From the NCBI GenBank assembly GCA_963805045.1, contig CAWDTC010000025.1, positions 42,372 to 106,371 on the forward strand: a stretch of DNA of 64,000 nt. Direction: 5' to 3'. The first letter of the stretch is position 1. Each line of letters starts with the position of its first letter. Both the position numbers and the translations under genes were made by a program. Below the pieces are notes generated by a model. It was given only the letters and a program-made list of their open reading frames with translations. It made no database searches and was not told the origin of the DNA. Origin of the DNA: Candidatus Aminicenantes bacterium. Its GTDB lineage: Bacteria > Acidobacteriota > Aminicenantia > Aminicenantales > Saccharicenantaceae. Positions 3,146 to 27,542 of the stretch are shown piece by piece.

Positions 3146-6100
3146 GGGTGTTCCTCGCGCGAGCGACGACGACGTACCCCTGAGGGGGATCGCCGTAAGA
3201 CGGGATGATCCGCTCGATCTCCCAACCCGCTCCCTCCAGCAAGCCTTCGAGCTTCTCAGAATCGAAGAAGTCGAACGTCCCCGCCTCCTCTAGATCCACT
3301 AACGCCTGGGCGTCGTTGAGGAAGGAGCGGAGAGATTCGAGGAGAAGCGGCTTGGGCCAACTCGGCGGGAGGGCCTCCTCGGGCATGGTTTCTATCTTCT
3401 CGAGGAGCCGGGTGAATGGGCCGGAGGCGTCGGTATCGGGACGCATGCTCGACAAAACGAGCCTTCCTCCCGGCCTGATGATCCTCCTGACCTCGGCCAG
3501 GGTTTCGCCCGGATTGAAAATATAGGAGAGAACGAGGCTCATCAGGACCTTGTTGTACCAGCCCGCCCGGAGCGGGAGATGAAGGGTGCCCTCCAAGTAC
3601 CCGGGTAAGGCGAGTCTGCGGAGGGCGGGCTTCTTATTCGTCAGGCGCCGGACGTAGCGCGCGGCCAGGTTAAAATCGATGATCGTCCGGTACTCGTGGA
3701 GATCGAACTGCCTTTTCAACCATTCGTCGTACGCTGGGGAAATGGGCTCCCCCCTGAGGATTCTGTGGAGACGAGGCGAATAAGCTTTTTGGATCTTCAG
3801 GGCACTCTCTAGGGTCAGGTTCTCGATCTTGTCGGCCATCTCCTCGAAGGTCCCGACCTCGCCATCCAGAAATCGCTGGATAGGGAGGAAGCGGCTCAAC
3901 TCCATGTCGAGGCACAGGAGGTCGAGGCGGCCGGGCTCCTTGAGGGCGTCGTAACGGAAAACGAACTTCTGCCTGGCCTGCTCCATGGCATCCGGGATCA
4001 GATCGGCGACGGTGATCTGTGCGGGAAGCTCCCGGCCGCTCTCGAGGAGGTGTTCGACGAAATTGCCCGTCCCGCCGCCCAGATCGAGCAGCCGGTCCGA
4101 GGGCAGGAGCTCGAGGGCCAGGAGTTGGTCCTGCATCAGCTGCTGGTAATCGTCGGACATCGCCATGATGTCGAAGCCCAGGAGGTTGTTGTCGCCCACG
4201 AGATAGCGATGCCAGTAGGTCTGTCGGTTCTTGAGGTTCCGGGTCGGAAGCCTGTCTTTCTCGGCCCGGCGCATGGTCTCCATGTTCTTCCGGCTGGGCA
4301 GGACCGGCTGGATCATGGTCTTGTGAAGAAAACGATGGATCAGCGACGTGATCGTCCCGAACATCTGCAGGGCCTCCCTTGACGTCCGGGCATTGTGCCC
4401 GATGGGAACGGAGATCACCTCACGCGGGGCGTTGGCCTTGATGCTCATCACGTCGCGGATGAACTCGGCCCTGACCCAGTTGTCGTATTGTCCGTAGATC
4501 CAGGTTATCGGAATGTCGATATGGCGCATGTCCTCGCGGGCCTGCTCGAGCGTGGCCACGGAGTTCGCGACCCCGTCTCCGACATAGAAGTCGACATTGA
4601 CGAGGTTGCCCAGGACCGGCATGACGCCCAGTTTGATGCCGAGCTGGTAATGCTCCAGGAAATCCAAGCCGCAATTGATCCGGACCATGAGGTCGCGGAA
4701 TTCCGGCGTGCCCATGCAGGCGATCCAGTACTGGATGCGATGATGGTTCGCCTCGTCCCTGAGGACGATCCGAGCGTCCAGCGCCGAAAAAGAAAACGTC
4801 AGGAGGATGACCGAGCTGGCCCGGAGTTTGGGATTCAGGTCAAGCCAGTCCAGGATGGCGACGACGTCCGCGGCGCTCTGGGTGAAATTCGTATTGAGCA
4901 TCTCATATGGCGGCTCCGATGCCTCGGCGTCCTTGTGGCTTTCCCCCTTCTTGCGGATGCCGTCAAAACGGATGACCGCCAAGGGCTTTCCCAGACGGCG
5001 GAAGTTCTCGGTCAGGGTCAGGGCCAGCCCGAACAGAGTCTCCTTGGTCTTCCCGAAGGCCGGCGGGACGATGACAACCGGGACGGGCCTGTCGTCCAAG
5101 GGGAGCGATGAATTCAGAAGCCCGACGATCTCCTCACCCTGCCGGGTCTCGACCCGGAACACCTCCGGGGGCTTGAGAACCGGTTGGCCCGCTTCTGTCG
5201 CGGCAGGTCGGGTCGCCTGTCTCCCGGACGGTTCGTCGGGATGGAGCCCGTAATCAAGCTCGGGAGTCTGGACGGACTGAATGCTCATCCGGCCGATGCC
5301 GAATTGAACACCGTACTTCGCGGTGTAAAGGACTCCTTCTCCGGCCCGGGAAACGTAGCGGACTTCGCCACTCTCTTTCCAGAGGACCTGGTCGCCGTCC
5401 ATAATGGACACGGTGTCGAGGGGCGTCCCCTTCAGCAGGACCTGTGCGTGGGAGTCGGCGATGAAGCTGACCCCACCCGGACTGATGTCGGTGATGCGGC
5501 CGGTGATGCTGTTGTTGAAGGGCTCGGGGAGGGGGATCTCGACCCGGAGGTTGCCGTACGGACTGAGCCGCTTTTCGGTCCGCTTTTCCGAATAGAACAT
5601 GACCCGTGGGTAAAGGCAGGTCAGGTTCCGGCCATCCGGCGCGATTCGAGAGATCATCGTCTCGAAATTGTAAGTGGCGTAGCCGATCTGGAAGGAGACA
5701 AAGATGAGATCGGACGTCTTGAACCGGACGTTCAGGTCTTCCCCGGCGAAGACGCACGTCGACTGAGGCCGGACATCGCCGAACCTGAGGATCTCCGGGT
5801 TCCGGGATTGGGCCTGGACGACTGCGACCTCCGTCCCATTGCGCATGGCCTCGCGGATGAGGGACTCGATCTTGAAGGCGTCCGAGAACAGGACCATGTC
5901 CTCGGTCTTGAGGAACGGATACCGCGATTTGAGCCCGGAAAGGTCGCGGACCGTGACGTAATCCGAGAGGAAGTGAAGGAGAGAGCGGCGGCTCTCGTCA
6001 TCGATGGCCTTGAACTCGACGCCGACGCCTCCCTGGTCGACGTCGTGCCGGACAATCCGGCCCGTGACGGCATAATGGCGGCCATCGGGGAGGGTGATGT

Positions 6101-6674
6101 CGAGGGGCAGCGAGGCGCCTTCCGGAAAGAAGGACATGGTCCGGAGGAGCATCCCATTCTCGCTGAGGTTGACGACATGGGCTTCGTCGCTCCCGCCGGC
6201 CTCGATGCGGACATCCGGCAGCCCGTTGAGATCGACGCGCATCGAGGTCCGCTTCTCGCGCGACTTTTGGGCGATGAGGAAGCCGACCTTACGCCTGACT
6301 TCAGCGGGATCCTCGGGCTTTTCACAGATGGCATCGATCCGGCCGTAGCTGCCGAGTTCCGCGGCCGTGCCGTTCAGGGGGGAGTCCGCGAGGAGGACCT
6401 TGACGATTGAGTCCGATTTCCCGAGCATCTCATTGAGGAAACGGAAGAGCTCGGTGCCTTTCATCCGCGGGAGGTCTTCGTTGACGACGAGGGCGTCGAC
6501 CTCGGGGAGGGCCTTGATCAGCTTGATGGCTTCGATGCCGCTCGTCGCGGTGTGGACGGTATACTGTTCACGGAAAACCCGCTGGAGCTTTTCGAGGTAG
6601 CCCAGGTCGTCGTCGACGAGGAGAACAACGGGTTTTCCCGGACGTGCCTGTGTGCCTGCATCCGTCTGACTCAT
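3138..6674 (-). CDS. 1178-aa multidomain signalling protein: atypical REC - PilZ - PilZ - alpha/beta-hydrolase-like - class I SAM-dependent methyltransferase
   Basis: N-terminus is CheY-like (VVLLVDDD ... KP) but has Asn where the phospho-Asp is expected (ALVVNEDLPRMKG). Two PilZ signatures (RTSMR...NLSENG and DISPGG). A central alpha/beta-hydrolase-like segment with a nucleophile-elbow-like TFSFS, later GDG and GHN. C-terminal MTase motif I LLDLGGGTGNF and a post-I IIRPGGRLV. The stop overlaps the start of the downstream HK gene by 8 nt. RBS AAAGAGG is upstream of the ATG at 6674. Confidence 0.75.
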   Translation of the reverse strand: MSQTDAGTQARPGKPVVLLVDDDLGYLEKLQRVFREQYTVHTATSGIEAIKLIKALPEVDALVVNEDLPRMKGTELFRFLNEMLGKSDSIVKVLLADSPLNGTAAELGSYGRIDAICEKPEDPAEVRRKVGFLIAQKSREKRTSMRVDLNGLPDVRIEAGGSDEAHVVNLSENGMLLRTMSFFPEGASLPLDITLPDGRHYAVTGRIVRHDVDQGGVGVEFKAIDDESRRSLLHFLSDYVTVRDLSGLKSRYPFLKTEDMVLFSDAFKIESLIREAMRNGTEVAVVQAQSRNPEILRFGDVRPQSTCVFAGEDLNVRFKTSDLIFVSFQIGYATYNFETMISRIAPDGRNLTCLYPRVMFYSEKRTEKRLSPYGNLRVEIPLPEPFNNSITGRITDISPGGVSFIADSHAQVLLKGTPLDTVSIMDGDQVLWKESGEVRYVSRAGEGVLYTAKYGVQFGIGRMSIQSVQTPELDYGLHPDEPSGRQATRPAATEAGQPVLKPPEVFRVETRQGEEIVGLLNSSLPLDDRPVPVVIVPPAFGKTKETLFGLALTLTENFRRLGKPLAVIRFDGIRKKGESHKDAEASEPPYEMLNTNFTQSAADVVAILDWLDLNPKLRASSVILLTFSFSALDARIVLRDEANHHRIQYWIACMGTPEFRDLMVRINCGLDFLEHYQLGIKLGVMPVLGNLVNVDFYVGDGVANSVATLEQAREDMRHIDIPITWIYGQYDNWVRAEFIRDVMSIKANAPREVISVPIGHNARTSREALQMFGTITSLIHRFLHKTMIQPVLPSRKNMETMRRAEKDRLPTRNLKNRQTYWHRYLVGDNNLLGFDIMAMSDDYQQLMQDQLLALELLPSDRLLDLGGGTGNFVEHLLESGRELPAQITVADLIPDAMEQARQKFVFRYDALKEPGRLDLLCLDMELSRFLPIQRFLDGEVGTFEEMADKIENLTLESALKIQKAYSPRLHRILRGEPISPAYDEWLKRQFDLHEYRTIIDFNLAARYVRRLTNKKPALRRLALPGYLEGTLHLPLRAGWYNKVLMSLVLSYIFNPGETLAEVRRIIRPGGRLVLSSMRPDTDASGPFTRLLEKIETMPEEALPPSWPKPLLLESLRSFLNDAQALVDLEEAGTFDFFDSEKLEGLLEGAGWEIERIIPSYGDPPQGYVVVARARNTHA

Positions 6675-6856
6675 CGACCTCTTTTATCCAAGGCGTAGTC
6701 TGTCGTGTAACCCATTTAGTCGGGCGAGGACGGGGACGCTTGAAATCATCGGCGTGGTCGACATCCGGCATGGATCTGGGCTCTGAGCGCATGGCACTCC
6801 CCGCCAGCCCAAATAGGGACACCCATATTTATGTATATCCACAATAATCCACACAA

Positions 6857-13019: not shown

Positions 13020-14450
13020 ATGCCCGAACGCCCGCCGCTCGAGGACGGCCTGTCCGTCAAGGAAAAGACGTCCGCCGCGGCGAACTCCGTCTTCGCCGCC
13101 CTCGCCCTGACCGGCATGAAGCCGCGGTCGGCCTCCTCTCCGGCTCTCTCGGCCTCCTGGCCGAAGCGGCCCACTCCGGCCTGGACCTCGTCGCCGCCGT
13201 CATCACCCTCCTCGCCGTCCGGGTCTCGGACCGCCCGGCCGACGAGGACCATCCCTACGGCCACGGCAAGGTCGAGAACTTCTCCGCCCTCGTCGAGACG
13301 CTCCTTCTCTTCGTCACGTGCGGCTGGATCCTCTACGAGGCCGTCCGCCGGCTCTTCTTCCGCGCCGTCGCGGTCACGCCCAGCGTGTGGGCCTTCCTCG
13401 TCGTCGTCGCGTCCATCGTCGTGAACATCTCGCGCTCCCGGATGCTCGGACCGCGCGGCGCGCCGGCACCGGAGCCAGGCCCTGGAGGCGGACGCCCTCC
13501 ACTTCTCGACCGACGTCTGGAGCTCGGCCGTCGTCCTCGCCGGGCTGGGCCTCGTCTGGCTCGGCCAGCACGCCCTGCCCGGCTATGGGCGCGTCCTCGA
13601 GAAGGCCGACGCCGCGGCCGCCATCGGCGTCGCCCTGATCATCCTCCTCGTCAGCTTCAAGCTGGGCAAGCGGACGGTCGACGTCCTCCTCGACTCGGCC
13701 CCGGACGGCCTTGCGGAGAGGATCGCCGAGGCGACGGCCGGGGTCGAGGGCGTCCTGCGGGCTGGCCAGGTCAGGGTCCGGCGCTCGGGCGCCCGGGTCT
13801 TCGTCGACATGAACGTCGAGGTCGACCGGAACCTCAGCTTCGAGCGGACCCATGCCATCGCCGACGCGGTCGAGGCCCGCGTCCGGTCCGTCACGCCCGG
13901 CGCCGACGTCGTCGTCCACACCGACCCGCGGGAGAGCGAGCGCGAGTCGATTGCCCGCCGCGTCCGGGCCGTGGCCGACCGCAACCTCGTCCCCGTCCAC
14001 AACATCAGCGTCCGCGAGGACGGGGGAGCCCTCTGTGTCGACCTCCACCTCGAAGTGGACGACCATCTCCTCCTCCACCAGGCCCACGAGCTGGCCAGCC
14101 GCATCGAGCAGGACCTCAAGGCCGACATCCCGGCCATCAAGAGCGTCAACACGCACATCGAGTCCCGGGGCACGGGTGTCGGCAGCGGCGTCGACGTGAC
14201 GGCCCAGGAGCCGGAGGTCGTCGCGACGGTCCGGCGGGTTGCCGACGCCGTCGTCGGCCGGCCCTGCTGTCACGACGTCATGGTCAGGCGGCAGGGCGGC
14301 CGGCTTTCCGTCTCGCTCCACTGCAGTTTCGACGCGGACCTGCCGGTCATCGAGGCCCACCGGATCTCGTCGCGGATCGAGGAGGCCCTGAAGGAGGAGG
14401 TCCCGGCCGTCGATTCCGTCCTGGTCCACACGGAGCCCGAGGGCCGTTGA
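13020..14450 (+). CDS. Cation diffusion facilitator (CDF) family metal efflux transporter with tandem C-terminal cytoplasmic domains (frameshifted)
   Basis: TM region (SAAANSVFAALALTG...HSGLDLVAAVITLLAV...DEDHPYGHGKVE) is recoverable across three frames in 13020-13800. ORF 13809-14450 encodes two cation-efflux C-terminal-domain repeats. Confidence 0.7.
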
Positions 14451-14484
14451 CCGGCCCTATGGTCCGGCCGGCAAGGGAGGGACG

Positions 14485-14970
14485 ATGACGAGCGACAGGA
14501 CGCCGATGACGCCGGCCGTGCGCGTCCTCAAGGACGCCGGCGTGGCCTTCAGCGAACATCCCTACCGTTACGTCGAGCGCGGCGGGACGGCGATCTTCGC
14601 CGCGGAGTCGGGCGTCGACGAGCATGCGGTCATCAAGACCCTCGTCATGGAGGACGACACGAAGCGGCCCTTCGTCGTCCTCATGCACGGCGACCGGGAG
14701 GTCTCGACCAGGGAAATGGCCCGCGTCCTGGGGGTCAAGACGGTCCGTCCGTGCGCGCCCGGGACGGCCCAGCGTCATTCGGGCTACATGGTCGGCGGCA
14801 CGTCGCCCTTCGGCCTGCGCAAGCCCATGCCGGTCTACGTCGAGGAGACGATTCTCGCTCTGCCGAAGATCTACATCAACGGGGGAAAGCGCGGCTTCCT
14901 CGTCGGCCTCGACCCGAAGGACCTGGCCCGTGTCCTCGGGCCGACCCCCGTCCGCGTCGCCACTGTTTAG
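14485..14970 (+). CDS. ybaK: Cys-tRNA(Pro)/Cys-tRNA(Cys) deacylase YbaK
   Basis: Intact 161-aa ORF typical of the YbaK/EbsC family (VLMHGDREVSTREMARVLG...GGTSPFG). Confidence 0.85.
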   Translation: MTSDRTPMTPAVRVLKDAGVAFSEHPYRYVERGGTAIFAAESGVDEHAVIKTLVMEDDTKRPFVVLMHGDREVSTREMARVLGVKTVRPCAPGTAQRHSGYMVGGTSPFGLRKPMPVYVEETILALPKIYINGGKRGFLVGLDPKDLARVLGPTPVRVATV

Positions 14971-14977
14971 AATCACG

Positions 14978-15210
14978 GAGGGACTGTCCCCGGCAGCGCC
15001 TGGGGGAGACTGAACCGCACATGACCTTCCGTCCAATCCCCGGGGCCGCTCAGGCTCTTAGGGTGGCGACGAGACCGTCCGAAAGCCCCCGTTTGGAGGG
15101 GGACCCGGCGGGATTTCCGACGGGGGAACCGGGACAGGTTCCCGGGGGCCGGGGGATAAGGACGGCCTTGGCGCCACCGCACCTGCTGACGCGGGGGACA
15201 GGACCTCTCC
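14978..15210. repeat. Copy 1 of a two-copy structured intergenic element (GGGAC-T-GTCCC palindrome, 27-nt module, hairpin-rich core of about 130 nt)
   Basis: Core 15057-15185 aligns with 45766-45907 (shared CCGTTTGGARGGGGACCCG, GGGGGAACCGGGACAGGTTCCCGGGG, CCGGGGGATAAGRACGGCCTTG and closing stem GTGGCGAC/GTCGCCAC with compensatory changes). Lies between the convergent ybaK and kdpD-N genes. Confidence 0.5.
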
Positions 15211-15221
15211 GACCGGGTTGG

Positions 15222-16913
15222 TCACCGCGCCGCTTCGCTGTCTTCCCAATCGCGGATCGTCCGTATGGCCTCCTCCGGGGTCCGGACCGACCTCAGGACC
15301 TGCATGAGTTGCCTGTTCTGGGCGGCCCGGCTGGCCAGGCCCAGCAGCTGGACCTGGGTCCCGGGGGTCTCGGCCGGGGACAGGAGGAGAAAGACGATCT
15401 CGATGGGCTTGTCCGTGGCCACGTCGATGACGCCCTCCTTCGTCAGCCCGAGGACGACGACCGGTTCCTTCAGTCCCTCCACCCGGACGTGGGGGAAGGC
15501 GACGCCCTCGTTGAAGAACGTCGAGCCCTGCGCCTCCCGCGCCATGATGGCCGCGAACAGGGCTTCGGCGTCCCCGCCGCCGGCCTCCGGTCCGACGGTC
15601 GCGGCCAGGGCGCACAGCACGCCTTCCCTCTCTGCGGCCGTCTCCCAGATGACGACCCGTGGGGAGGACAGCCACCGGCTGAGCCGGGGACGGTCCGCCG
15701 GCGCGGCGCCGGCGCCTCCGGCCGCAGCGACCCCCGCCGTTTCCTGCTCGGGGATCTCGGGCCGGGGCCGGACGGACTCCGGCAGGTCCTCGCACGTGTC
15801 GAGGACGATGACGGTGATCCCCCGGGCGTTCCTGATGAGAGCGTCGATGACGTTCCTGTTCCGGCCGAGCCGCTTCCAGAACGGCTTGGGCTGGGCCCGG
15901 CCGACGACGATGTGGCCGACCCGGTATTCCCGGGCGAAACGGAGGAGCGTGTCGGCGATGTCCTCCCCCTTGTAGGTGAAGACCATCGCCCCGAGCTGCT
16001 TGGCCAGGGTCAGGGAGTCCGAGAGATGGCGCTGGACTTCGGCGTCGATGACCGTGGCTTCCTCCGACGGCGTCTGGACATAGACGGCGTACCAGTTCCG
16101 GTTGAGCCTCCCCGCCAGCCGCGAGCCGTAGCGCAGGAGCTTCTCGCTGTTCGGGCCGTGCGAGCTCAGGCAGACCATGACCTGGTCGGACGAAGCGCCG
16201 GCCTCCGCCCCCTGCGCCTCCCGCCGCCGCAGGTCGATCTGCGAGGCCAGCTCCCGCAGGGTCAGCTCGCGGAGCTTCTCCAGGTTGGAGGGGGTGAAGA
16301 AATTGGCCAGGGCGGTCTCGATGCGTTCGGTCGGGTAGATCTTGCCGTCCTCCAGGCGCTGCCGCAGGTCCTCCGTGGCCAGGTCGACGTCGACGATCTC
16401 GTCGGCCTCGGCCAGGATCGAGTCGGGGATGCGCTCGCGGACCTTGACCCCGACGGCGTTCTCGACGATGTTGTAGAGGCTCTCGAGATGCTGGACGTTG
16501 AGCGTGGTGATGACGTGGATGCCGGCCGCCAGGATGTCCTGGACGTCCTCGTAGCGCTTGGCGTTCCGGCTGCCGGGGACGTTCGTGTGGGCCAGCTCGT
16601 CGATGAGGGCGACCTGGGGCTTGCGGGCCAGGATGGCGTCCACGTCCATCTCCTCGACGGCGATGCCGTGGTATTCCTGGGTGCGCCGCGGCACGACCTC
16701 GAGGCCCTGGGCGAGCCGGGCGATGTCCGCCCGGCCGTGCGTCTCGAGGAGGCCGATGACGACGTCGATGCCCTCGGCCTTGAGCCGGTGGCCCTCCTGG
16801 AGCATCTGGTAGGTCTTGCCGACGCCCGCGGAATAGCCGAGGTAGACCTTGAGCCGGCCCCGCTGGGCGCTGCGGATCATGCGGAGGAAGGCGTCGGCCT
16901 TATCGTCCGGCAC
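15222..16913 (-). CDS. Kinase-less KdpD sensor module: KdpD N-terminal domain + Usp domain fused to a PTS EIIA(Ntr)-like (EIIA type 2) domain
   Basis: KdpD-N signature LKVYLGYSAGVGKTYQML...ALIDELAHTN. A Usp-OKCHK-like region follows (VMVCLSSHGPNSEKLL...IVVG), then a Gly/Ala linker and an EIIA-2 fold with an active-site-like His (GVAFPHVR...IVFLLLSP). No HisKA/HATPase is present. Confidence 0.8.
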   Translation of the reverse strand: MPDDKADAFLRMIRSAQRGRLKVYLGYSAGVGKTYQMLQEGHRLKAEGIDVVIGLLETHGRADIARLAQGLEVVPRRTQEYHGIAVEEMDVDAILARKPQVALIDELAHTNVPGSRNAKRYEDVQDILAAGIHVITTLNVQHLESLYNIVENAVGVKVRERIPDSILAEADEIVDVDLATEDLRQRLEDGKIYPTERIETALANFFTPSNLEKLRELTLRELASQIDLRRREAQGAEAGASSDQVMVCLSSHGPNSEKLLRYGSRLAGRLNRNWYAVYVQTPSEEATVIDAEVQRHLSDSLTLAKQLGAMVFTYKGEDIADTLLRFAREYRVGHIVVGRAQPKPFWKRLGRNRNVIDALIRNARGITVIVLDTCEDLPESVRPRPEIPEQETAGVAAAGGAGAAPADRPRLSRWLSSPRVVIWETAAEREGVLCALAATVGPEAGGGDAEALFAAIMAREAQGSTFFNEGVAFPHVRVEGLKEPVVVLGLTKEGVIDVATDKPIEIVFLLLSPAETPGTQVQLLGLASRAAQNRQLMQVLRSVRTPEEAIRTIRDWEDSEAAR

Positions 16914-17493
16914 GGGGGACTCCGTCGAGCGCGAGGTTCAATTCAGGACGTTGACGCGGGGCTCGCCGAGGATGCCCAACGTCCGGCCCTCGGTCGTGGC
17001 CGCGACGAAGGCGAGGACATCCGACTCGGTCAGGCCGCGGGCCCGGGCGACGCGGCCGGCCTGGAGCCGGGCGTTCTCGGGGGAGATGTGGGGGTCGAGC
17101 CCGCTCCCCGAGGCGGTCACGGCGTCGGCCGGCACGGGCGTCCCCGGCGCGAGGCCGTTCTCCGCCCGGTATTCGGCGACCCGGCGCCGCACGGTCTCGA
17201 TCAGCTCCTTCGACAGCGGCCCGAGGTTTGACCCGCCGGAGGCCGTGGCGTCGTAGCCCTTCCCGGCCGCCGACGGACGCGGATGGAAATACCCCGGCCC
17301 GGCGAACCGCTGGCCGATGAGGTCCGAGCCGACGACGGCGCCGCTCCTCGCGACGAGCGAGCCGTTGGCCTCTGGCCGGGAAGAAGGCCTGAGCCAGGAC
17401 CCACGAGGCCAGCGGATAGAGGCCGCACAGAAGGACGGCCAGGGCGGCCACGGCCAGGAAGGACCGCCGGAGTTCCTCGAGCCAGCTCTTCAT
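16900..17493 (-). CDS. kdpC: K+-transporting ATPase subunit C (frameshifted)
   Basis: N-terminus [32 protein letters not shown] (ATG at 17493); C-terminus ...[13 protein letters not shown]...EPRVNVL/ELNLALD is split between ORFs 16938-17192 and 16900-17493. Confidence 0.75.
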
Positions 17494-17514
17494 CTCCGCG
17501 TTCCTTTCCCCATG

Positions 17515-19541
<2,027 letters not shown>

Positions 19542-19553
19542 CGTGCGACTCCC

Positions 19554-21408
19554 TTAGAACAGGACTCCCGAACCGGTCATCAGGAAGTGCTCGACGATCG
19601 GGCCGAGGGCCAGGGCGGGAAGGAACGTCAGGGCGCCGACGATGAGGACGGTCCCGACGAGGATGATGACGAACATCGGCCCGCTCACCGGGAAGCTCGC
19701 CTCGCCCGCCGGGACGAGCTTCTTCCGCGCCAGGCTCCCGGCCAGGGCCAGGACCGGCACGATCATGACGAAACGGCCGAAGAGCATGGCCAGGGCCAGG
19801 GTGACGTTGTACCAGGCGTGTTGCCGTTCAGCCCGGCGAAGGCGCTGCCGTTGTTGCCCGTGGCCGAGGAGAAGGCGTAGAGGATCTCGCTCAGGCCGTG
19901 GGGGCCGGCGTTGCCGAGGCCGGCCAGGCCCCAGCGGCTCGACCGACGGCCCAGGCGGCGAAGCCGAGGATGGAGAAGATGAGGATGAGGACGGCCAGGA
20001 CGGAGACCTTGACGTCGTAGGCCTCGATCTTCTTGCCGAGGTACTCGGGCGTCCGCCCGACCATCAGGCCGGTCAGGAAGACGGCCAGGACGACGAAGAC
20101 GAGCATCCCGTAGAGGCCCGAGCCGACGCCGCCGAAGACGACCTCGCCGAGCTGGATGTTGACGAGCGGGACGAGCCCGCCGAGCGGCGTGAACGAGTCG
20201 TGCATGGCGTTGACCGCGCCGCAGGAGGCGTCCGTCGTGACGGTGGCGAAGAGGGCGGAGTCGAAGACGCCGAAGCGGACCTCCTTGCCCTCCATGTTGC
20301 CGCCGCGCGGGTCGACGCCGAGGGCCTGCGAGCCGGGGATTGCCGGCGCTCTCGGCCCTCCAGCAGACGAGGACCGCGGCCAGGAAGAGGATGGCCATGG
20401 CCGTCCAGACGGCCCAGCCGTGCTTCTGGTTCTTGACCTTGCGGCCGAGGTAATAGGTGAGGCCGCTCGGGATGAGGAAGATCGAGAGCATCTGGATGAA
20501 GTTCGAGAGCGGCGTCGGGTTCTCGTAGGGATGGGCGGCGTTGGCGTTGAAGAAGCCGCCGCCGTTCGTGCCGAGCATCTTGATGGCCACCTGCGAGGCC
20601 GCCGGGCCCTGGGGGAGGGTCTGGGTCGTCCGGCCGCGTCCTTCCCGGGACCGGCCGTCGCCTCCGCGGTCGCCGCCCGGACGTAAGGCTTGAAGTTCTG
20701 GATGACGCCCTGGGACGATCAGGAAGAGCGGAGAAGACGAGCGAGAGCGGGAGCAGGAGGTAGAGGTTGACGCGGACGAGGTCGACCCAGAAGTTCCCGA
20801 TGGTCTTGGCCGAATGCCGGGCGATGCCCGCGGACCAGGGCCGCGGCGACGGCGATGCCGGCGGCGGCCGAGACGAAGTTGTGGAAGACGAGCCCGACCA
20901 TCTGCGAGAAATAGGACAGGGTCGATTCCCCGGCATAGTTCTGCCAGTTCGTGTTCGTGGTGAAGCTCGCCGCCGTGTTGAAGGCGAGGTCGGGGCGCGA
21001 CGCGGCCCGAACTCTGGGGGTTCAGGGGCAGGAGGTGCTGGAGGCGGAGGACGGCGTAGGTGAAGAGGAGCCCGACCAGGCTGAAGACGAGGAGGGAGAG
21101 GGTGTATTGCTGCCAGTCCTGCTCCTTCTTCCGGGTCGACGCCGAGGAGCCGGTAGAGGAGGCGCTCGACGGGCTTGAGCCGGCCGGTCCAGCCAGGTCC
21201 TGCCCTCGGGCTCGAGGACGCGGACGAGGTAGAGGCCGACCGGCTTCGTGAGGAGGAAGAGGACGCCGAGGAAGAGCGCGAGCTGGAGTCCAGCCGGAAG
21301 ATGTCCATCGCGATCATCGCCTCTCAAAACTTCTCCGGCCGGAGGACGCTCGAGCAAGAGATAGCCGATGAGCAGGAGCCCGACGATGAGCCCGATGATG
21401 TCGATCAT
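19554..21408 (-). CDS. kdpA: K+-transporting ATPase subunit A (several frame breaks)
   Basis: N-terminus [19 protein letters not shown] (ATG at 21408). Internal segments are in ORFs 20073-21317, 19891-20295 and 19763-20590; C-terminus in 19554-19787. Confidence 0.85.
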
Positions 21409-21410
21409 GG

Positions 21411-21495
21411 TCAGAGCCTCTCGCAGGCCCGGGCATACAGGGCGCAGAGCCCGAAGAAGACGCACGGCGATGAGCACGAAGAAGACGTCGCTCAT
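21411..21495 (-). CDS. kdpF: KdpF-like small membrane peptide (about 28 aa, one frame break)
   Basis: [12 protein letters not shown] then ATG at 21495. Peptide MSDVFFVLIAV...FFGLCALYARACERL read with a 1-nt shift. Its TGA lies immediately before the kdpA ATG. Its ATG overlaps the upstream HK stop (ATGA). Confidence 0.5.
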
Positions 21496-23349
21496 GACGC
21501 GGCTCCTCCTCGGCGCACCGCGTCGGCCCTCCTCAGCGTGAAGGAGAACGTCGCGCCCTGTCCCTCCCGGCTCTCGACGCCGACCGTTGCCGCCGTGGGC
21601 CTCGACGATCTCCTTGACGATGGCCAGCCCGAGCCCCGCGCCCCGGTCTCCGGCTCCTGCCCGGGAACGCGGAAGAACGGCTCGAAGATCCTGGCGAGGT
21701 ACTTCGCGGGGATGCCGGCGCCCGTATCGGCGACCGAGAAGCGGACCGACGTCCTCCTCTTCCTTGGCGCGACACGGTGATCCGCCCGCCGGGCGGCGTG
21801 TGCTTGAGGGCGTTCGAGAGCAGGTTGCCGAAGACGTGGCTGATCGGGTCGGTCGGCCAGGACCTCGGGCAGGTCTGCCGCGCACGTCGACGGCCAGCGT
21901 CACGCCCTGGTCCTGGGCCGCCCGGCGGAAGGGCTCGAGGGCGTCCATGACCAGCGTCTGCGGGCGAGATCGGCCTGGAAGTCCATGCTGGCCTTCCCCG
22001 ATTCCATGCGGCTGATGTCGAGGAGGTTGTTGAGGATGTCGTGGAGCCGGTCGCTGTCCTCCCGGGCCGCGACCAGGAGCTCGGCCTGCTTCTCGGTCAG
22101 GGCGCCGACCTTCTCCTCGAGAAGGAGGTGGATGGCCATGCGGATGGAGGTCAGGGGGGTCTTCAGCTGGTGGGAAACGGTCCGGATGACACTCCGCTTG
22201 ATCTCGTCCTGCTGCCGGAGCTGGGTGACGTCCTGGAGGACGAGGATGACGCCGGTCGGCTGCCGCTCGGCGTCCAGGATGGGGACGGCCTCCGGGCGGA
22301 AGAAGCGCTCCTCCCCGTCCACGAATGCTGGATGACCTTCTGCCGTTCGCGGGGCGGAACGGGCCGGCCCTCGCTGAGGGCCTCGTTGTAGAGATCGACG
22401 TCCAGTCCGAACGGCAGGTCGCGGATGGCGGACGCCCGGCCTCAGGCCGAAGACGGTCCTGGCCGGCTCCGTCGACGACCTCCACCTTTCCCTCGAGGTC
22501 GACGACGGCGACGGCGTCGGGCAGCTGTCGAAGGCCTGCTGTGTCGCCCGCTGGATGCGGAGGAGCTTGGCCTGGTCGGTCCGCCGGAACTCCCGCAGGC
22601 TGGCGGCCATGGCGTTGAACGCCTCGGCCAGGTGGCCGATCTCGTCGTGGGAATCGCTCGGGACGACGAGGTCGAGGTTGCCGCGCCGGATCTCGTCGGC
22701 GGACCGGATCAGGCGTTCGGATCGGGCCGGAGGATCCAGCGTCCGGGCGAAGACGATGAAGCGAGCGGCGACGAGCGTCCCCAGGCCGAGAAGGACGATA
22801 CATCTGCCGCCGGGCCGCGGCGGCGCTCTGCGCGGGCCCGGTCGTTGGCGTCGCTCATGTTCTGCTGGTTCATCTGGAGGATGTCGTCGGCCGTGGCCTT
22901 GATCTGCCCGAAGAGCGGGAGAAGGGCATGTGAAGTAGGCGTCCCGGCGGACGTCCGGCGGCCTGCGCCGGGTCGCTTGACCTTCTCCAGGGCCGCTGCG
23001 TACCGGCCGTAAAGATCCTTGAGCGCGCGGCCTTCTCGCCCTCGCCCGGCACGGTGATGTTGTTCAGCTCGACCTGGAGGGCCTTTTCGAAGACGCCTTC
23101 GTTCTTCAGGATGAGCTCCTCCCCCTGACGGGAGTCGCCGAGGAGGGTAAAGAGCAGGCCGCTGTCGATGCGCTCCAGGGCCTCCTTCATCTGCTGGCAG
23201 GCGATGACGCTCCGGTAGTTCTCGCGGAGGATGACGTCGATGGACTCGCCGAGCCGCGAGAGGTGGAGGATGCTCTGGCCGCCGATGACGAGGATGATGA
23301 CGAGCAGCCCGCCGAAGCCCAGGGAGATCTTCTGACGGAGTCCGAGCAT
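21492..23349 (-). CDS. Membrane sensor histidine kinase (non-KdpD type; periplasmic sensor domain, HisKA, HATPase), frameshifted
   Basis: RBS GGAAGGAGAGG then ATG at 23349: MLGLRQKISLGFGGLLVIILVIGG... (ORF 22870-23349). HisKA VSHQLKTPLTSIRMAIHLL (ORF 21900-22610). HATPase ...GLGLAIVKEIVEAHGG in a third frame; stop at 21492. Confidence 0.75.
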
Positions 23350-23373
23350 TGCCTCTCCTTCCGGCCTTCATAA

Positions 23374-23389
23374 TGCAAGAGCCATGCCA
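23374..23389 (-). promoter_or_regulatory. Sigma-54 (-24/-12) promoter CTGGCATGGCTCTTGCAT immediately upstream of the HK-kdpFABC operon
   Basis: Minus strand reads TGGCAT-N5-TTGCA. The GG-to-GC spacing is exactly as in the consensus TGGCAC-N5-TTGCA. The predicted start site falls at the RBS, about 14 nt before the ATG. Confidence 0.55.
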
Positions 23390-23481
23390 GAGTTGCGTGT
23401 CTTCATAAACTATTGAAAATGAATGTGTTGCATTTCGCCTGGCAAAGCGCGGCTTGCATTCGTCAAGGTGGACGGCGAATT

Positions 23482-23503
23482 GGCCATTGAAAAATGCAAT
23501 GCG
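23482..23503. promoter_or_regulatory. Candidate enhancer/UAS inverted repeat GGCCATTGAAAAATGCAATGCG, about 105 nt upstream of the sigma-54 -24 element
   Basis: Arms GCATTG/CAATGC. A near-identical motif (17/22) occurs at the same distance from a second sigma-54-like promoter at 27521-27542. Further TTGCAT repeats lie at 23427 and 23454. Confidence 0.4.
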
Positions 23504-23544
23504 ACCTGGAGGATCTTCGATCGGAGGCGACAGAGGCGCTTCAG

Positions 23545-24914
23545 CTAAAGGCCGTACTTCTTACGCCGCCGCCAGAGGGTGGCCTGGTCGATGCCGAGCA
23601 CGTCCGCCGCCTCCTGGAGGGAGTCGCGTCCTCGCCAGGACGCGCCGGATGTGCTGCTCCTCGATCTTGTCCAGGCTCACGCGGTCGCCGAGCCGGACCT
23701 CGGCGCCGCCGGGAACGACTCCCGCCGGCAGGCATTCGATGCCGACGCGGTCGTCGCGGCAGAGGATGGCGGCGCGCTCGACAGCGTTGCTCAGTTCGCG
23801 GACATTGCCCGGCCAGGCGTAGCCGGCCAGGGCGCGAAGGGCCTCGTCCGTGAAGCCCAGGTACGAGCGGTGGTTATTGCGGGCGTGAAAGGCCAGCAGC
23901 CGTTCCGCGAGCCCGGCAATGTCGCCCGGCCGCTCGCGGAGGGGAGGGATCTCGATCGGGATGACGTTCAGACGGTAATAAAGGTCCTCCCGGAAGCGGC
24001 CGTGCTTGACGGCGTCCTCGAGGCTCGTGTTCGTGGCCGCGATCAGCCGCACGTCCGCCTTCCGCGTGACCGTGTCGCCGACGCGCTCGTATTCCCGGTC
24101 CTGGACGAAGCGCAGGAGCTTCGGCTGGAGGGCGAGGGGCAGGTCGCCGATCTCGTCCAGGAAGAGCGTCCCGCCGTCGCTCGCGGCGATCCGGCCGGGG
24201 TTGTCGCGGACGGCGCCGGTGAAGGCGCCCTTGACGTGGCCGAAGAGCTCGCTTTCGAGCAGCTCCGGCGAGAAAGAGGGGCAGGAGATCAGGCTGAACG
24301 GCTTCCCCGCCCGGGGGCTCCAGGAATGGATGGCCCGCGCCAGGACCGTTTTGCCCGTGCCGCTCTCGCCGCGAAGGAGGAGCGTCGCCTCGGATGCCGC
24401 GGCCTGGCGGGCCAGGGCCGCCGCCCTCTGCATGGCCGGGTTCGAACTCGAAAAATCGACCTCCGGACGCTGGCGGCCCAGGTCCTCCTGTAGGGCGGCG
24501 ACCTTCTGCTCGAGCGTCCGGACCTCGAAGACCTTCCGGACGGCCAGGTTGATCTGGGCCGGCGTGAACGGCTTGGGGATGTAATCGGTCGCTCCCCGCC
24601 GCATGGCCTCGACGGCCGTATCGATGGAGGCGTAGGCGGTGATGACGATGATCTTGAGCCAGGGCGTCGCCGCGAGGAGGGGCGGGATGAGGTCGAGGCC
24701 GTCGTCGGTGCCCAGCCGGAGGTCGACGAAGGCCAGGTCGAAGGAACGGCGTGCGGCCTCGGCCAGGGCGTCCTGGAAATTGCTGACCGCCGATGACCTT
24801 GTGGCCTTCCGTCTCGAGACAGAGGGCCAGCGTCTTGCGGATGTTGAGCTCGTCGTCCACGACCAGGACATGGAGGGACGGGCTCACGGCCGGGATGCTC
24901 TTTTCGGGCCCCAT
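23545..24914 (-). CDS. Sigma-54-dependent (NtrC-family) response regulator: REC - AAA+ sigma54-activation domain (GAFTGA) - Fis-type HTH; frame breaks near both ends
   Basis: N-terminus MGPEKSIPAVSPSLHVLVVDDE (ATG at 24914). AAA+ with GESGTGKT and GAFTGA. C-terminal HTH ...EAADVLGIDQATLWRRRKKYGL* read in a shifted frame (stop at 23545). Confidence 0.8.
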
Positions 24915-24937
24915 GGGACGATCCGCTTCGGGCCCCA

Positions 24938-24966
24938 AGCATAGCGGACATCCGGGGGAAAAGCAA
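24938..24966 (-). promoter_or_regulatory. Candidate sigma70 promoter TTGCTT-17-TATGCT for the response-regulator gene
   Basis: Minus strand: TTGCTT (24966-24961), 17-nt spacer, TATGCT (24943-24938), about 25 nt upstream of the ATG at 24914. Confidence 0.35.
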
Positions 24967-25105
24967 CACGCAGCCAAGCGATGGACGGGGCATGTCCTCC
25001 CACGGCAGACAGGGCCTTCCTCGGGCTGGAAGGTTCCCATTTGCCGTGTTTCGGACTACAATAAGGGTGTCAAAGTCAGGACATGGGTAATCCCCCGGAG
25101 GCGTC

Positions 25106-25879
25106 ATGACACTCAAGAAGAAACTGACTTTGGGCCTGGGGTTCTTGTTCCTCATCATATTCTTTTTGGGGATTTTCTGCTCCTACCATATCGGCAGCCT
25201 CTCGCAGGACGCCGAGAACATCCTGAAAGACAATTACAAATCACTCGTCTACTCCAGGAACATGATCTCGGCCCTCGAGGACATGCGGACGGCCGTCAGC
25301 AGCATTATTTTCAACGTGCCCGAAGCTAAGGAGACATCAGACTACTACCTGAAGCTCTTTGAAGCCGGCCGGATCGAATTCGAAGCCAATCTCAAGTCCG
25401 AGAACGGCAACATCACCGAGATCCATGAAAGCGATTACGTGGCCGCGGTCAACCGGGATTATGTTCTGTACGCAAGCCTCTGCCAGCGCCTCGTCAAGGG
25501 GGAGGGCGGCCGCGCGCTCTATTTCAATGAATACCAACCCGCCTTTGAAAAACTCAGGCACGCCATCATCAGCATCAACGACGTTAACATGCAGGCCGTC
25601 GAGCGGAAAAATCAGATCGCAAAGCAGGATTCGGCCAGGACCATCAGCCTTATGGCCGGCATCGGGGCCTTTTGCCTGCTCCTGGCGTTCGGCTATTTTT
25701 GGTACTTCCCGGTTTACATCTCCAACTCGATCAGCTATCTTGCGGACAGGATGAAGACGCTCCTGAAGAAGTCCAACATCGTCCTCGATATCAGGACGGA
25801 CGACGAAGCCTTCATCGTCTTGCAGGGCATCAACCTGCTTGAGAACAAGCTGGACGTCAAAGACAATGGACAGGCCTAG
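25106..25879 (+). CDS. Orphan membrane-anchored sensor-domain protein (two TM segments, no output domain); paralog of the HK sensor domain
   Basis: MTLKKKLTLGLGFLFLIIFFLGIF...ENILKDNYKSLVYSRNMISALEDM aligns with the HK N-terminus ...DVILRENYRSVIACQQMKEALERI. A second TM is near the C-terminus. RBS GGAGG. The gene is visibly lower in GC than its flanks. Confidence 0.6.
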   Translation: MTLKKKLTLGLGFLFLIIFFLGIFCSYHIGSLSQDAENILKDNYKSLVYSRNMISALEDMRTAVSSIIFNVPEAKETSDYYLKLFEAGRIEFEANLKSENGNITEIHESDYVAAVNRDYVLYASLCQRLVKGEGGRALYFNEYQPAFEKLRHAIISINDVNMQAVERKNQIAKQDSARTISLMAGIGAFCLLLAFGYFWYFPVYISNSISYLADRMKTLLKKSNIVLDIRTDDEAFIVLQGINLLENKLDVKDNGQA

Positions 25880-25896
25880 AGGCCTGCGGATGGATT

Positions 25897-27201
25897 CTAA
25901 AAGGTGAAGAGGGCGTCCACGCTGAATGTCAACTGATCTTGATGGCCGCCGTCGAAGGCCGCGCGGTCAGAGTGGTCGTAGCGAACTTCAGGCCGGAACA
26001 GCACATGCGAGAGGATATGGTCTTTTGGGAACGGCTTGATCGCCATGCCCATGGTTGCCTCACGGTAGTCGGCGCTGACGGGCGCACCGGTGGAAAAGCC
26101 ATTGGCGGCGTCTTTGTACCACTCCAGCCGGGTGTTCAGTGTGAAGTGCGTATCGATCGCGAAGCTTACGTAGCCAGCCACGCCACCCCACTGCTTAACA
26201 CCGTCCGGTAAGCCCGGGATGTGCGGCGCGACGACGTAGTCAACGCCCAAGCCGAGGCTGAATTTGTCAGTGACCTTGTGGGTCATAACCAAGTCCAAGG
26301 CGGTCCACCAGTCGCTGTTGTCGCCCGGAGGCAGATTCGTTCCGACGCCCGCCGGGAACTCCGGGCCTTCCGTCATCACGAAAATGACGGAAGTCTTGTC
26401 GCTGGGCGTATAGATCACGCGGCCCAAGAAGTCCAGGGAATCGTTAGCGTCGCGCGTCGACTGGTTCCAGCCGCGCGTGAAGCCGGCGTCAAACGTCCAC
26501 TGGCGGTTAAGCACGACGGTGGCTAATACGCCCGTCTGCGTGCCAGACTCGGCATAGAGAAACTGATAACTGTAAGAATAAAGTGCCCTGGCCGGATCAC
26601 CGAAAGCCCCGTAGATGTTAGCGCTGAACTGCTCGAAACCGGCCAGCTCGATCCATTTGCCCACGCGGAGTCGAAGCGGCAAGCCCGGGAGGGTCACGTC
26701 CACATAAGCTTGGAGAAGGTCCCATTGATTGCGCCCGGTCTGCGTATCCATCATGCCGTTCGAGTGGATGAACGCCGCATCTGCGCCATAGATGCCTTCC
26801 CCGTGGAAACCCACGTTAAATGCCTTCTTGGTCGGATCGACCGTGCGCTCGATATTCAAACTGATCTTGTCAAGGATGACCGTGTTCTTGAAATTGTTAT
26901 ATCCGATGTAGGTCGGGCCGGGACTGTCAGGCGCGGAGAGGTCGTAAAAGTAACCGCCTTGAGCATAGCCGTAGATGTTGATCCTGGCCTTGTTCAAAGG
27001 CCCAGCTATTCCCCCCTCGGCCAAAGCCGTCATCAGCGGCCCCGGTGTCGGCACGGTCGTGGTCGGCGGACTTGCTTCCTGGATCTTTTCCTTGTCCGAT
27101 GTCGCTGCCGGTGCATTTTGGCCGGCGCGCAATGGGATATTGATCCAAGCGGCAAGGAGCGCACAGCTGACTGCGGCAATCCCGAATTTAACGACTTTCA
27201 T
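25897..27201 (-). CDS. Outer-membrane beta-barrel protein (porin-like), with a signal peptide
   Basis: RBS AAGGTGA then ATG at 27201: MKVVKFGIAAVSCALLAAWINIPLRAG. Alternating amphipathic strands; C-terminal ...SVDALFTF (terminal Phe). Confidence 0.6.
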   Translation of the reverse strand: MKVVKFGIAAVSCALLAAWINIPLRAGQNAPAATSDKEKIQEASPPTTTVPTPGPLMTALAEGGIAGPLNKARINIYGYAQGGYFYDLSAPDSPGPTYIGYNNFKNTVILDKISLNIERTVDPTKKAFNVGFHGEGIYGADAAFIHSNGMMDTQTGRNQWDLLQAYVDVTLPGLPLRLRVGKWIELAGFEQFSANIYGAFGDPARALYSYSYQFLYAESGTQTGVLATVVLNRQWTFDAGFTRGWNQSTRDANDSLDFLGRVIYTPSDKTSVIFVMTEGPEFPAGVGTNLPPGDNSDWWTALDLVMTHKVTDKFSLGLGVDYVVAPHIPGLPDGVKQWGGVAGYVSFAIDTHFTLNTRLEWYKDAANGFSTGAPVSADYREATMGMAIKPFPKDHILSHVLFRPEVRYDHSDRAAFDGGHQDQLTFSVDALFTF

Positions 27202-27413
27202 GGGTGTCACCTTGGTTAAAGGATGTGCGATCTCTTCCGGATTCGGTTGCGACGGTCGAGCGACTATCATCAATCCGCTGCACGATTTGCGAGAACTGAC
27301 GGTCGAGGATATGCACGACTGTATTTCCTATGGGACGGCTGGCTTTCTGGATGTTTGTTTTTGATTTCATGGATTTAAGGGGGCTTGGCGTTTTTTTCCG
27401 AGAGACCGGATAG

Positions 27414-27431
27414 TGCAAGATATATACCAAC
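27414..27431 (-). promoter_or_regulatory. Sigma-54-like promoter GTTGGTATATATCTTGCA (TGGTAT-N5-TTGCA) about 210 nt upstream of the OMP gene
   Basis: Exact GG-N10-GC spacing; a TGGTAT -24 variant is known from nif promoters; shares an upstream motif with the kdp sigma-54 promoter. Confidence 0.35.
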
Positions 27432-27520
27432 AGATCTTTACTGTATCTGATTAAAAATAAATGAGTTTTTCGAAGTTCGAGTTCCGGGCCTGGTTGCACT
27501 AATCAATTAAGGTCGCGAAT

Positions 27521-27542
27521 GGGCATTGAGAAATGCAACGGC
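27521..27542. promoter_or_regulatory. Second copy of the candidate UAS motif GGGCATTGAGAAATGCAACGGC, about 104 nt upstream of the -24 element
   Basis: 17/22 identity with 23482-23503, and the same distance to its promoter. Confidence 0.35.

Follow-up and report, generated by a model that had tools for sequence, protein, structure and literature searches.

We have identified a gene that joins a KdpD-type atypical serine kinase (ASK) to an EIIA(Ntr)-like domain of the phosphotransferase system (PTS). It is found at the end of a kdp operon in a Candidatus Aminicenantes bacterium, at 15222..16913 on the minus strand of the 64,000-nucleotide stretch of contig CAWDTC010000025.1 that was analyzed (the window). 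The gene is intact (563 aa plus stop), and its product has the order KdpD_N, Usp, linker and EIIA(Ntr)-like domain. Judging from these parts, the fusion would be a short, serine-kinase KdpD with a tethered EIIA(Ntr) input instead of cyclic di-AMP (c-di-AMP), which ties the brake on KdpB to the phosphorylation state of the PTS, with kdp being transcribed separately via sigma-54. We regard this reading as reasonably, though not strongly, probable. The family appears to wire an EIIA(Ntr) module directly to a KdpD capable only of serine-kinase action, and it is represented in at least 564 species genomes. A testable hypothesis follows, namely that the KdpB brake has a third input beside K+ and c-di-AMP. 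The link between PtsN and Kdp is thereby extended well beyond Proteobacteria, and for kdp a conserved sigma-54 regulon emerges whose enhancer motif can be defined.

The fusion gene has a GTG start at 16913, with GGAG just before it, and a TGA stop at 15222-15224. It is the final gene of the kdp operon, overlaps the same-strand kdpC by 14 nt, and has a third-position GC of 0.94 in one coding phase over its entire length. The N-terminal domain (aa 17-226; 16236..16865, minus strand) matched the full length of PF02702 (profile positions 1-210; 309 bits against a cut-off of 26.1, E 1.6e-92), and PDB entry 2R8R at 223 bits. The Usp domain (aa 245-363; 15825..16181, minus strand) scored 18.8 bits with PF00582, below the cut-off of 24; the assignment is nevertheless backed because the predicted fold of this region matches the KdpD USP structure 7JI4 with a template modeling (TM) score of 0.81 (Foldseek against PDB). 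A variable linker (aa 381-406; 15696..15773, minus strand), with poorly conserved alignment columns, is predicted to be disordered. The EIIA(Ntr)-like domain follows at aa 410-563 (15225..15686, minus strand), with its Pfam core at aa 435-554. A full-length AlphaFold2 model built on 64 homologues had an overall predicted local distance difference test (pLDDT) score of 69.6 and a predicted TM score (pTM) of 0.35. By region, the EIIA domain was confident (pLDDT ~88-95) and the linker disordered (pLDDT ~30). A Foldseek search of the PDB with the predicted fold recovered all three modules, namely the KdpD N-domain (2R8R), the KdpD USP domain (7JI4) and EIIA(Ntr)/PtsN. The original prediction, made from the sequence alone, had proposed a KdpD_N, Usp and EIIA architecture for the last kdp gene. 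Pfam, the PDB matches and the predicted fold bear it out, with PF02702 and PF00359 above their Pfam cut-offs and Usp carried by its fold.

No DUF4118 (transmembrane), GAF, HisKA or HATPase_c domain was detected in the fusion protein with Pfam. Consistent with its short layout, the full-length KdpD model NF007793 covered positions 10-381 of 895 only, at 363 bits against a cut-off of 1123, which places the protein outside the canonical sensor histidine kinases (HKs). The model for the "KdpD-like non-kinase potassium sensor", NF038185, gave 367.5 bits against a cut-off of 550, and over aa 7-370 only. The fusion protein is thus a relative of the NF038185 family that lies outside that curated family.

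The C-terminal domain belongs to the EIIA type 2 superfamily by PF00359 (59.8 bits against a cut-off of 27), as had been predicted. Its only strong sequence matches in the PDB were the PtsN structures 1A6J, 2A0J, 3URR and 4GQX (E 6e-11 to 2e-9), and the next EIIA followed at 4e-3. The predicted fold superposed on the same four structures with TM scores of 0.82-0.86 and root-mean-square deviations of 2.1-2.6 A, and the sugar-type EIIAs 3OXP, 2OQ3 and 3BJV ranked below them in Foldseek. The EIIA domain is therefore PtsN-like, its closest solved relatives being PtsN by both sequence and predicted fold. It scored below the NCBIfam cut-offs for PtsN equivalogs (TIGR01419, 42.9 bits against 138.7; NF008145, 41.9 against 221), and the EIIA model for fructose-specific fruA scored similarly on the C-terminus (44.2 bits). 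PtsN is also a free-standing protein of ~160 aa, typically encoded near rpoN, and the domain described here is instead the C-terminal part of a 563-aa protein in a kdp operon.

Residue conservation was assessed in an alignment of 251 fusions, from which all residue counts are drawn. In the alignment with E. coli PtsN, the putative phospho-acceptor His475 (codon at 15489..15491, minus strand), within the motif GVAFPHVR, falls on the phosphorylated His73, and Arg459 falls on Arg57. The active-site-like His that the original prediction had pointed out in VAFPHVR is thus the counterpart of a known phosphorylation site, and it is present in 250/251 fusions. Arg459, Glu460 and Thr465 are found in all 251 and Pro474 in 248/251. 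These active-site residues are held across phyla, although overall identity is only 40-55%.

At the other end of the protein lies a domain whose enzymatic role was discovered only in 2023-24 (PMC11018627). The KdpD domain is an ASK that phosphorylates KdpB Ser162 in the TGES loop, by which KdpFABC is inhibited (PMC11018627; bioRxiv 10.1101/2023.11.09.566405). Its activity needs Walker A, the Walker B residues D109/E110 and the W39/R190 pair (E. coli numbering). KdpDs made of the KdpD and Usp domains alone occur in species without KdpE, where their action is purely post-translational, and the short KdpD of D. geothermalis is stimulated by c-di-AMP (PMC11018627). In the fusion, the ASK residues are Walker A G30-V-G-K33-T34, Tyr35, Walker B D105/E106 and Arg186. 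The Walker A GVGK, D105/E106 and Arg186 (the equivalent of E. coli R190) are present in 251/251 fusions; position 35, Tyr in the window protein where E. coli has Trp39, is aromatic in 248/251. The target serine is retained as well: the motif ITGESAPV is found in the window KdpB (TGES at 19072-19083) and in the KdpB proteins of two related loci, L001 and L003. The description of the gene as a kinase-less sensor module is therefore true of the histidine kinase only, as the N-domain is an ASK with an invariant catalytic set.

Two types of KdpD Usp motif, E. coli-type and c-di-AMP-binding, were defined by Moscoso et al. 2015 (PMC4686210). The window protein, with RYGSR-LAGRLNRN-WYAVY at aa 261-278, carries the E. 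coli type (RXXXR-X8-WXAVY), which is present in 214/251 fusions, and the motif for binding of c-di-AMP, SXS-X20-FTAXY, occurs in 0/251. Control by c-di-AMP through Usp was ruled out by the absent motif, and neither a c-di-AMP nor any other Rfam riboswitch was found in 14000-26000. From its motifs and domain content, the fusion seems to lack both known inputs to the serine kinase, transmembrane/GAF K+ sensing and c-di-AMP, and the EIIA domain is therefore the obvious candidate input. Since the ASK residues and the EIIA active site are both conserved, both ends of the fusion are read as probably active.

The fusion is neither rare nor confined to one assembly. With the window fusion as query, a protein search found more than 120 clusters that are 75-94% identical to it; every one has PF02702 and PF00359, and all are of 552-568 aa, bar one of 606 aa; the named sources were mostly metagenome-assembled genomes (MAGs) of Aminicenantes/Acidobacteriota. 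Among representatives at 50% identity there were at least 12 full-length fusion clusters, with identity down to 38%, including a Thermoanaerobaculia MAG and Leptospira sp. 96542. A search with the Leptospira protein gave ~120 further fusions, with Desulfobacterium/Desulfobacterales, Thermodesulfobacteriota, Chlorobiaceae and Ca. Dadabacteria among the named sources, and later searches added fusions from Hydrogenedentes and Kiritimatiellales. A scan with an alignment of the Usp and EIIA parts, in which each GTDB species was represented by one genome, showed a Usp-EIIA relative to be encoded in at least 564 species genomes. The best 80 of these loci covered Usp and EIIA continuously, end to end, and they include five complete Aminicenantes chromosomes (Aminicenantes chromosomes with the fusion are, for example, OY969586.1, OY970261.1, OY969762.1, OY970122.1 and OY969696.1), Krumholzibacteriia, Syntrophales, Desulfomonilaceae and the cultured Syntrophorhabdus aromaticivorans UI. 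The family thus spans about ten phyla or candidate phyla and occurs in a few cultured bacteria besides hundreds of uncultured ones, with lineages that include Acidobacteriota/Aminicenantes, Thermodesulfobacteriota, Spirochaetota, Chlorobi-type bacteria, Dadabacteria, Krumholzibacteriia, Hydrogenedentes and Kiritimatiellales. Syntrophorhabdus aromaticivorans UI (NZ_KI867150.1 and other scaffolds) and Leptospira sp. 96542 (GCA_029310945.1) are cultured carriers and offer hosts for experiments. Altogether, independent assemblies supply more than 240 homologues, 545-570 aa long, that have PF02702 and PF00359 in one open reading frame (ORF) with a common end point. The recurrence of the fusion in other genomes, which the original prediction had proposed to look for, is thereby established, and no HisKA/HATPase continuation of the gene lies downstream.

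In L001, an intact related genome, the cassette consists of an NtrC-type sigma-54 response regulator (RR; 455 aa), a HAMP-PAS-HisKA-HATPase kinase (614 aa), kdpF, kdpA, kdpB, kdpC and the fusion, which again overlaps kdpC by 14 nt. The same order, with other flanking genes, was seen in further Acidobacteriota MAGs, Leptospira, an uncultured Desulfobacterium, a Chlorobiaceae MAG and a Dadabacteria MAG. Upstream genes were counted in those fetched loci, 60 in all, whose upstream sequence extended over at least 8.5 kb. The RR and HK were both upstream in 52/60, one of them was present in the other 8/60, and no locus had neither. In the window, the NtrC/AtoC-family sigma-54 enhancer-binding RR lies at 23545..24914 (minus strand) and is 82% identical to the L001 RR; the membrane HAMP-PAS-HisKA-HATPase HK, the first gene of the operon, lies at 21490..23349 (minus strand, 3' end approximate). 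Pfam gave the RR domains as receiver, Sigma54_activat AAA+ and HTH_8 in six loci (L001, L003, L005, L007, L008 and L010). Both proteins fall below every NCBIfam equivalog cut-off, the RR being generic AtoC/NtrC-like and the HK having a WalK/PhoR-type HisKA transmitter. No regulator of the KdpE type or of the KdpD histidine kinase type adjoins the cassette.

Sigma-54 promoters were sought with the consensus GG-N10-GC, TGGCAC-N5-TTGCW, allowing at most 2 mismatches with the GG and GC cores intact. An exact match, TGGCATGGCTCTTGCA (23374..23389, minus strand), ends 24 nt upstream of the HK ATG (23349), and a comparable site was found in 49/60 loci, nearly always 24-31 nt before the HK start. Upstream of it (23454..23499, minus strand), a pair of enhancer-like palindromes with a spacing of 33 nt follows the pattern TTGCA-N3-TGCAA, one at 23487-23499 (1 mismatch) and the other at 23454-23466 (2 mismatches). 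When no more than 1 mismatch is allowed, TTGCA-N3-TGCAA is present in 42/49 RR-HK spacers, where shuffles predict 0.25, and paired copies 30-33 bp apart occur in 14 RR-HK regions. A TTGCA-N5-TGCAA motif gave a weak signal as the enhancer (11/48 regions, where shuffles gave 3.9 on average and 10 at most) and was superseded by TTGCA-N3-TGCAA. The sigma-54 RR/HK pair is a conserved, dedicated regulatory module of the cassette. No rpoN was seen in a Pfam scan of the window over ~1-38,000 and, by eye, on the translated ORFs of the remaining window, and no intrinsic terminator was found after the fusion gene.

The cassette also exists without the EIIA domain. Siblings of 384-394 aa that end after Usp occupy the same sigma-54 RR/HAMP-HK/kdpFABC cassette in Victivallis (L091), a deltaproteobacterial MAG (L092) and Ca. 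Electronema (L093); their KdpD parts are 55-57% identical to that of the fusion and their Usp domains are of the same subfamily. Gene order and the types of RR and HK are alike, and the terminal gene differs in ending after Usp. Because these siblings share the cassette, the sigma-54 two-component system would work without EIIA, and EIIA would be an accessory add-on. It had been predicted that the KdpD kinase and KdpE were replaced by an unrelated HK and a sigma-54 activator. The locus indeed lacks a KdpD-type HK and KdpE and has the HAMP-HK, the NtrC-type activator and the sigma-54 promoter, but the replacement did not arrive with EIIA, as the siblings have it too. In the Victivallis sp. locus, a transposase splits the RR gene.

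According to the reading that we favor, the ASK domain of the fusion would phosphorylate the TGES-loop serine of KdpB and turn off the KdpFABC K+ pump post-translationally. The PtsN-type EIIA, on a flexible tether of ~30 residues, would stand where the two known ASK inputs would otherwise be. Phosphate would pass from phosphoenolpyruvate through enzyme I (EI) and HPr/NPr to His475 of EIIA, and the phosphorylation state of His475 would set ASK activity in cis. The EIIA domain might also contact the dimerization and histidine phosphotransfer (DHp) domain of the co-encoded HK, as free PtsN does in E. coli. As an outcome, pump activity would be coupled to carbon, nitrogen and energy status. Transcription would be governed separately, with the membrane HAMP-PAS HK and the NtrC-type activator acting through the two TTGCA-N3-TGCAA sites and the sigma-54 promoter before HK-kdpFABC-fusion. 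The architecture, residue conservation, synteny, promoter and enhancer elements and family breadth are direct observations. We infer from them that the fusion phosphorylates the KdpB serine, that His475 is itself phosphorylated, and that one phospho-form activates or inhibits. Modulation of the tethered serine kinase in cis by His475 phosphorylation is the most economical model, with action in trans on the HK as a non-exclusive second.

Several observations weigh against this reading. No gene for EI, HPr/NPr or HprK was found in the 64-kb window or in the cassette flanks of 90 loci (L001-L090), as searched by tblastn with E. coli and B. subtilis probes and by Pfam on ORFs of the first ~38 kb; a PTS(Ntr) input to the fusion is accordingly a matter of inference. 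The AlphaFold2 model gives no confident packing of the domains, as its low pTM indicates, and hence no structural support for regulation in cis. From the occurrence of the EIIA-less siblings in the same cassette, EIIA would appear to be dispensable for the core function. In a distant fusion outside the 251, P0177, the EIIA phospho-acceptor His is replaced by Cys (FPCV), a sign that phosphorylation may occasionally be lost or altered. Lastly, the neighboring operon genes are frameshifted in the window, and if these frameshifts were real, by pseudogenization, the system would be dead in the source organism.

The original prediction saw in the fusion a rewired K+/PTS(Ntr) sensing input. Taken as a model, the fusion would be mainly a transcriptional input device, in which EIIA would bind the DHp/transmitter of the neighboring HK and tune sigma-54 transcription of kdp, with KdpD_N/Usp serving as a sensor or scaffold. 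All 60 loci hold an HK or a sigma-54 activator and 52 hold both, E. coli PtsN acts on the HisKA/transmitter of KdpD (and binds PhoR), the transmitter of the operon HK is of the PhoR/WalK HisKA type, and the flexible tether, as modeled, would permit action in trans. The model is compatible with the cis reading, but the same cassette accompanies short KdpDs that lack EIIA in Victivallis, Ca. Electronema and a deltaproteobacterial MAG, and the invariant ASK catalytic residues point to an enzyme rather than a passive sensor. We therefore consider it unlikely as the principal function.

It is more improbable still that the EIIA has left the phosphorelay altogether and persists as a ligand-binding, protein-binding or dimerization module with its fold kept, for example where EI and HPr are lacking. 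Such a role would agree with the lack of any PTS gene in the window or any fetched locus, with the published view of PTS(Ntr) as chiefly proteobacterial (PMC13104625), with the Cys-for-His replacement in one family member and with a TIGR01419 score far under its cut-off. Set against this, the near-invariance of His475 together with Arg459, Glu460, Thr465 and Pro474 is the pattern expected of a live active site, and at least one Aminicenantes MAG is reported to encode a putative mannose PTS (PMC4897734).

Finally, the fusion could be an artefact, either because an indel in an error-rich assembly merged a ptsN-like gene with a short kdpD or because a longer KdpD was cut short; the operon around it in the window carries dozens of 1-nt indels, but the more than 240 independent homologues with both domains in one ORF, the 80 loci continuous over Usp and EIIA, including complete chromosomes and a cultured isolate, and the single coding phase of the ORF reduce this to a negligible chance. 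The same-length homologues and the continuous loci also exclude that the gene hides a frameshift or continues downstream into a kinase.

Free PtsN provides the closest precedent for the proposed input. Unphosphorylated PtsN binds KdpD and raises kdp expression in E. coli, R. leguminosarum and S. fredii (PMC9239096; PMC13104625; Luttmann 2009; Mork-Morkenstein 2017), so that the statement in the original prediction that free EIIA(Ntr) binds KdpD and stimulates kdp expression in E. coli is confirmed by the literature. In P. putida, phosphorylated PtsN is the active form (PMC13104625). The contact on KdpD is the HisKA/transmitter domain in E. coli and GAF in S. fredii (PMC9239096). Like the free PtsN of E. 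coli, Rhizobium, Sinorhizobium and Pseudomonas, the domain in the fusion is a PtsN-type EIIA with the same Arg/His pair that is functionally attached to Kdp. Unlike those systems, in which a full-length KdpD is contacted at its HisKA/transmitter or GAF by a separate ~160-aa PtsN that alters KdpE-dependent transcription, the EIIA here is covalently joined to a KdpD without those domains, and transcription proceeds via sigma-54. It had been proposed that the two partners are fused here. A KdpD part and a PtsN-like EIIA are indeed joined, but since the HisKA/transmitter and GAF parts contacted by PtsN are absent from the fusion, it is not simply two partners fused.

About 10% of alpha-proteobacteria have a second ptsN (ptsN2) within the kdpABCDE operon (PMC13104625), which is likewise an EIIA(Ntr) paralogue reserved for Kdp and transcribed together with its genes. 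However, ptsN2 is a separate gene beside a canonical KdpD/KdpE, whereas the EIIA described here is fused, and the hosts of the fusion are non-proteobacterial or deltaproteobacterial and have no KdpE at the locus. The short KdpD of D. geothermalis and other KdpE-less species (PMC11018627) shares with the fusion an ASK with all catalytic residues followed by Usp, the lack of transmembrane, GAF, HisKA and HATPase domains, an operon with kdpFABC and the KdpB TGES serine. The fusion differs in that a disordered tether attaches an EIIA(Ntr)-like domain at its C-terminus, its Usp is of the E. coli type rather than the c-di-AMP type, its score is below the NF038185 cut-off, and its gene always closes a sigma-54/two-component cassette.

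EIIA type-2 domains are also fused in the PRD regulators MtlR, LicR and LevR, which are PTS-controlled switches in cis. These regulators bind DNA or RNA and are under sugar-PTS components, whereas the controlled module in the fusion would be a serine kinase for a P-type ATPase.

No published description of a KdpD-EIIA fusion or of a sigma-54-controlled kdp operon was found in full-text searches, the 2024 census of KdpD architectures or the 2026 PTS(Ntr) review, and neither version of Silberberg et al. mentions PTS or EIIA (PMC11018627; bioRxiv 10.1101/2023.11.09.566405). The 2026 review calls PTS(Ntr) widely distributed in Proteobacteria and notes discrepant models of its link with K+ homeostasis (PMC13104625). 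Fusion sequences are already publicly deposited, where they go by generic labels such as "PTS sugar transporter subunit IIA" (NCBI) and "KdpD" (JGI), and the fusion is uncharacterized. An exact search of public assemblies for the window protein itself gave no record. A further KdpD-domain architecture, likewise unreported, is that of proteins of ~740-780 aa with two tandem KdpD_N+Usp modules (P0129, P0135, P0139-P0146 and others; confirmed with Pfam for P0129 and P0135).

A broader and more doubtful proposal, which we advance tentatively, is that the ancient, true target of EIIA(Ntr) in Kdp is the KdpB serine-kinase brake. Free PtsN would then act on the N-domain of full-length KdpD in E. coli and other Proteobacteria as well, and the whole sigma-54 RR/HK-kdpFABC-ASK-EIIA module, with or without the porin, would be a self-contained K+ acquisition cassette in about ten phyla or candidate phyla. 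If so, PTS(Ntr) would control the activity of the K+ pump post-translationally, beyond kdp transcription.

The remaining operon genes in the window are kdpC (16900..17493, two frameshifts), kdpB (17515..19541, at least four), kdpA (19554..21317, multiply frameshifted) and kdpF (21323..21408, one 1-nt insertion, ends approximate), all on the minus strand; the HK is multiply frameshifted and the RR has two frameshifts. As shown by tblastn and a plot of third-position GC phase, the six genes from RR to kdpC (16940-24914) change frame repeatedly relative to L001. The changes number dozens, are mostly single-base insertions and are not limited to homopolymers, and third-position GC is ~1.0 inside each broken fragment. 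Fragmentation of the same degree is seen elsewhere in the window, at about 9.6-13.3 kb, 28.5-31.5 kb, 32.9-37.6 kb and 53-57 kb, and other stretches are clean (3.1-6.7 kb and 37.6-48.5 kb). Because this pattern is patchy and insertion-biased, the frameshifts are probably unpolished long-read error rather than gene decay. In the neighboring 8 kb there is ~1 frame switch per 300-400 bp. At that rate the 1.7-kb fusion gene should hold ~4-6, and 0 were observed, a discrepancy that patchy polishing would explain.

A BBP2/OmpL-like porin region lies beyond the RR at 25897..27538 (minus strand), with an intact gene at 25897-27273 (458 aa; BBP2/OmpL-like match of 165 bits). A sigma-54-like promoter, TGGTATATATCTTGCA, is located at 27414-27429, with two degenerate TTGCA-N3-TGCAA upstream activating sequence (UAS) sites at 27494-27506 and 27526-27538. 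The geometry is that of the kdp promoter: the two UAS sites are separated by 32-33 nt, and the second is at a distance of 77 nt from the promoter. Homologous porins are found between the RR and HK in three other loci (L026, L074 and L040), each with its own UAS pair and promoter. From these shared elements, the porin, an outer-membrane channel, is probably a member of the kdp sigma-54 regulon.

In the Leptospira sp. 96542 locus (L007), a second perfect sigma-54 promoter, TGGCACGACTTTTGCA, is found at 5541-5556, a short way upstream of kdpF/kdpA and still within the 3' end of the HK gene, in addition to the promoter before the HK. On the plus strand of the window, 25106-25879 encodes a member of a 257-262-aa protein family with a weak 4HB_MCP_1 match and ~25% identity to the N-terminal sensor region of the operon HK. 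This protein recurs near the cassette in varied positions (L001, 11703-12491, minus strand; L005, 1034-1807, minus strand) and may be an accessory or decoy sensor. Two further regions of the window are unrelated to the fusion, namely 562-2725 (minus strand), with an HD-GYP-type (HD_5) protein and a hybrid HisKA-HATPase-receiver kinase, and 3138-6683, which encodes a large PilZ/receiver/methyltransferase protein.

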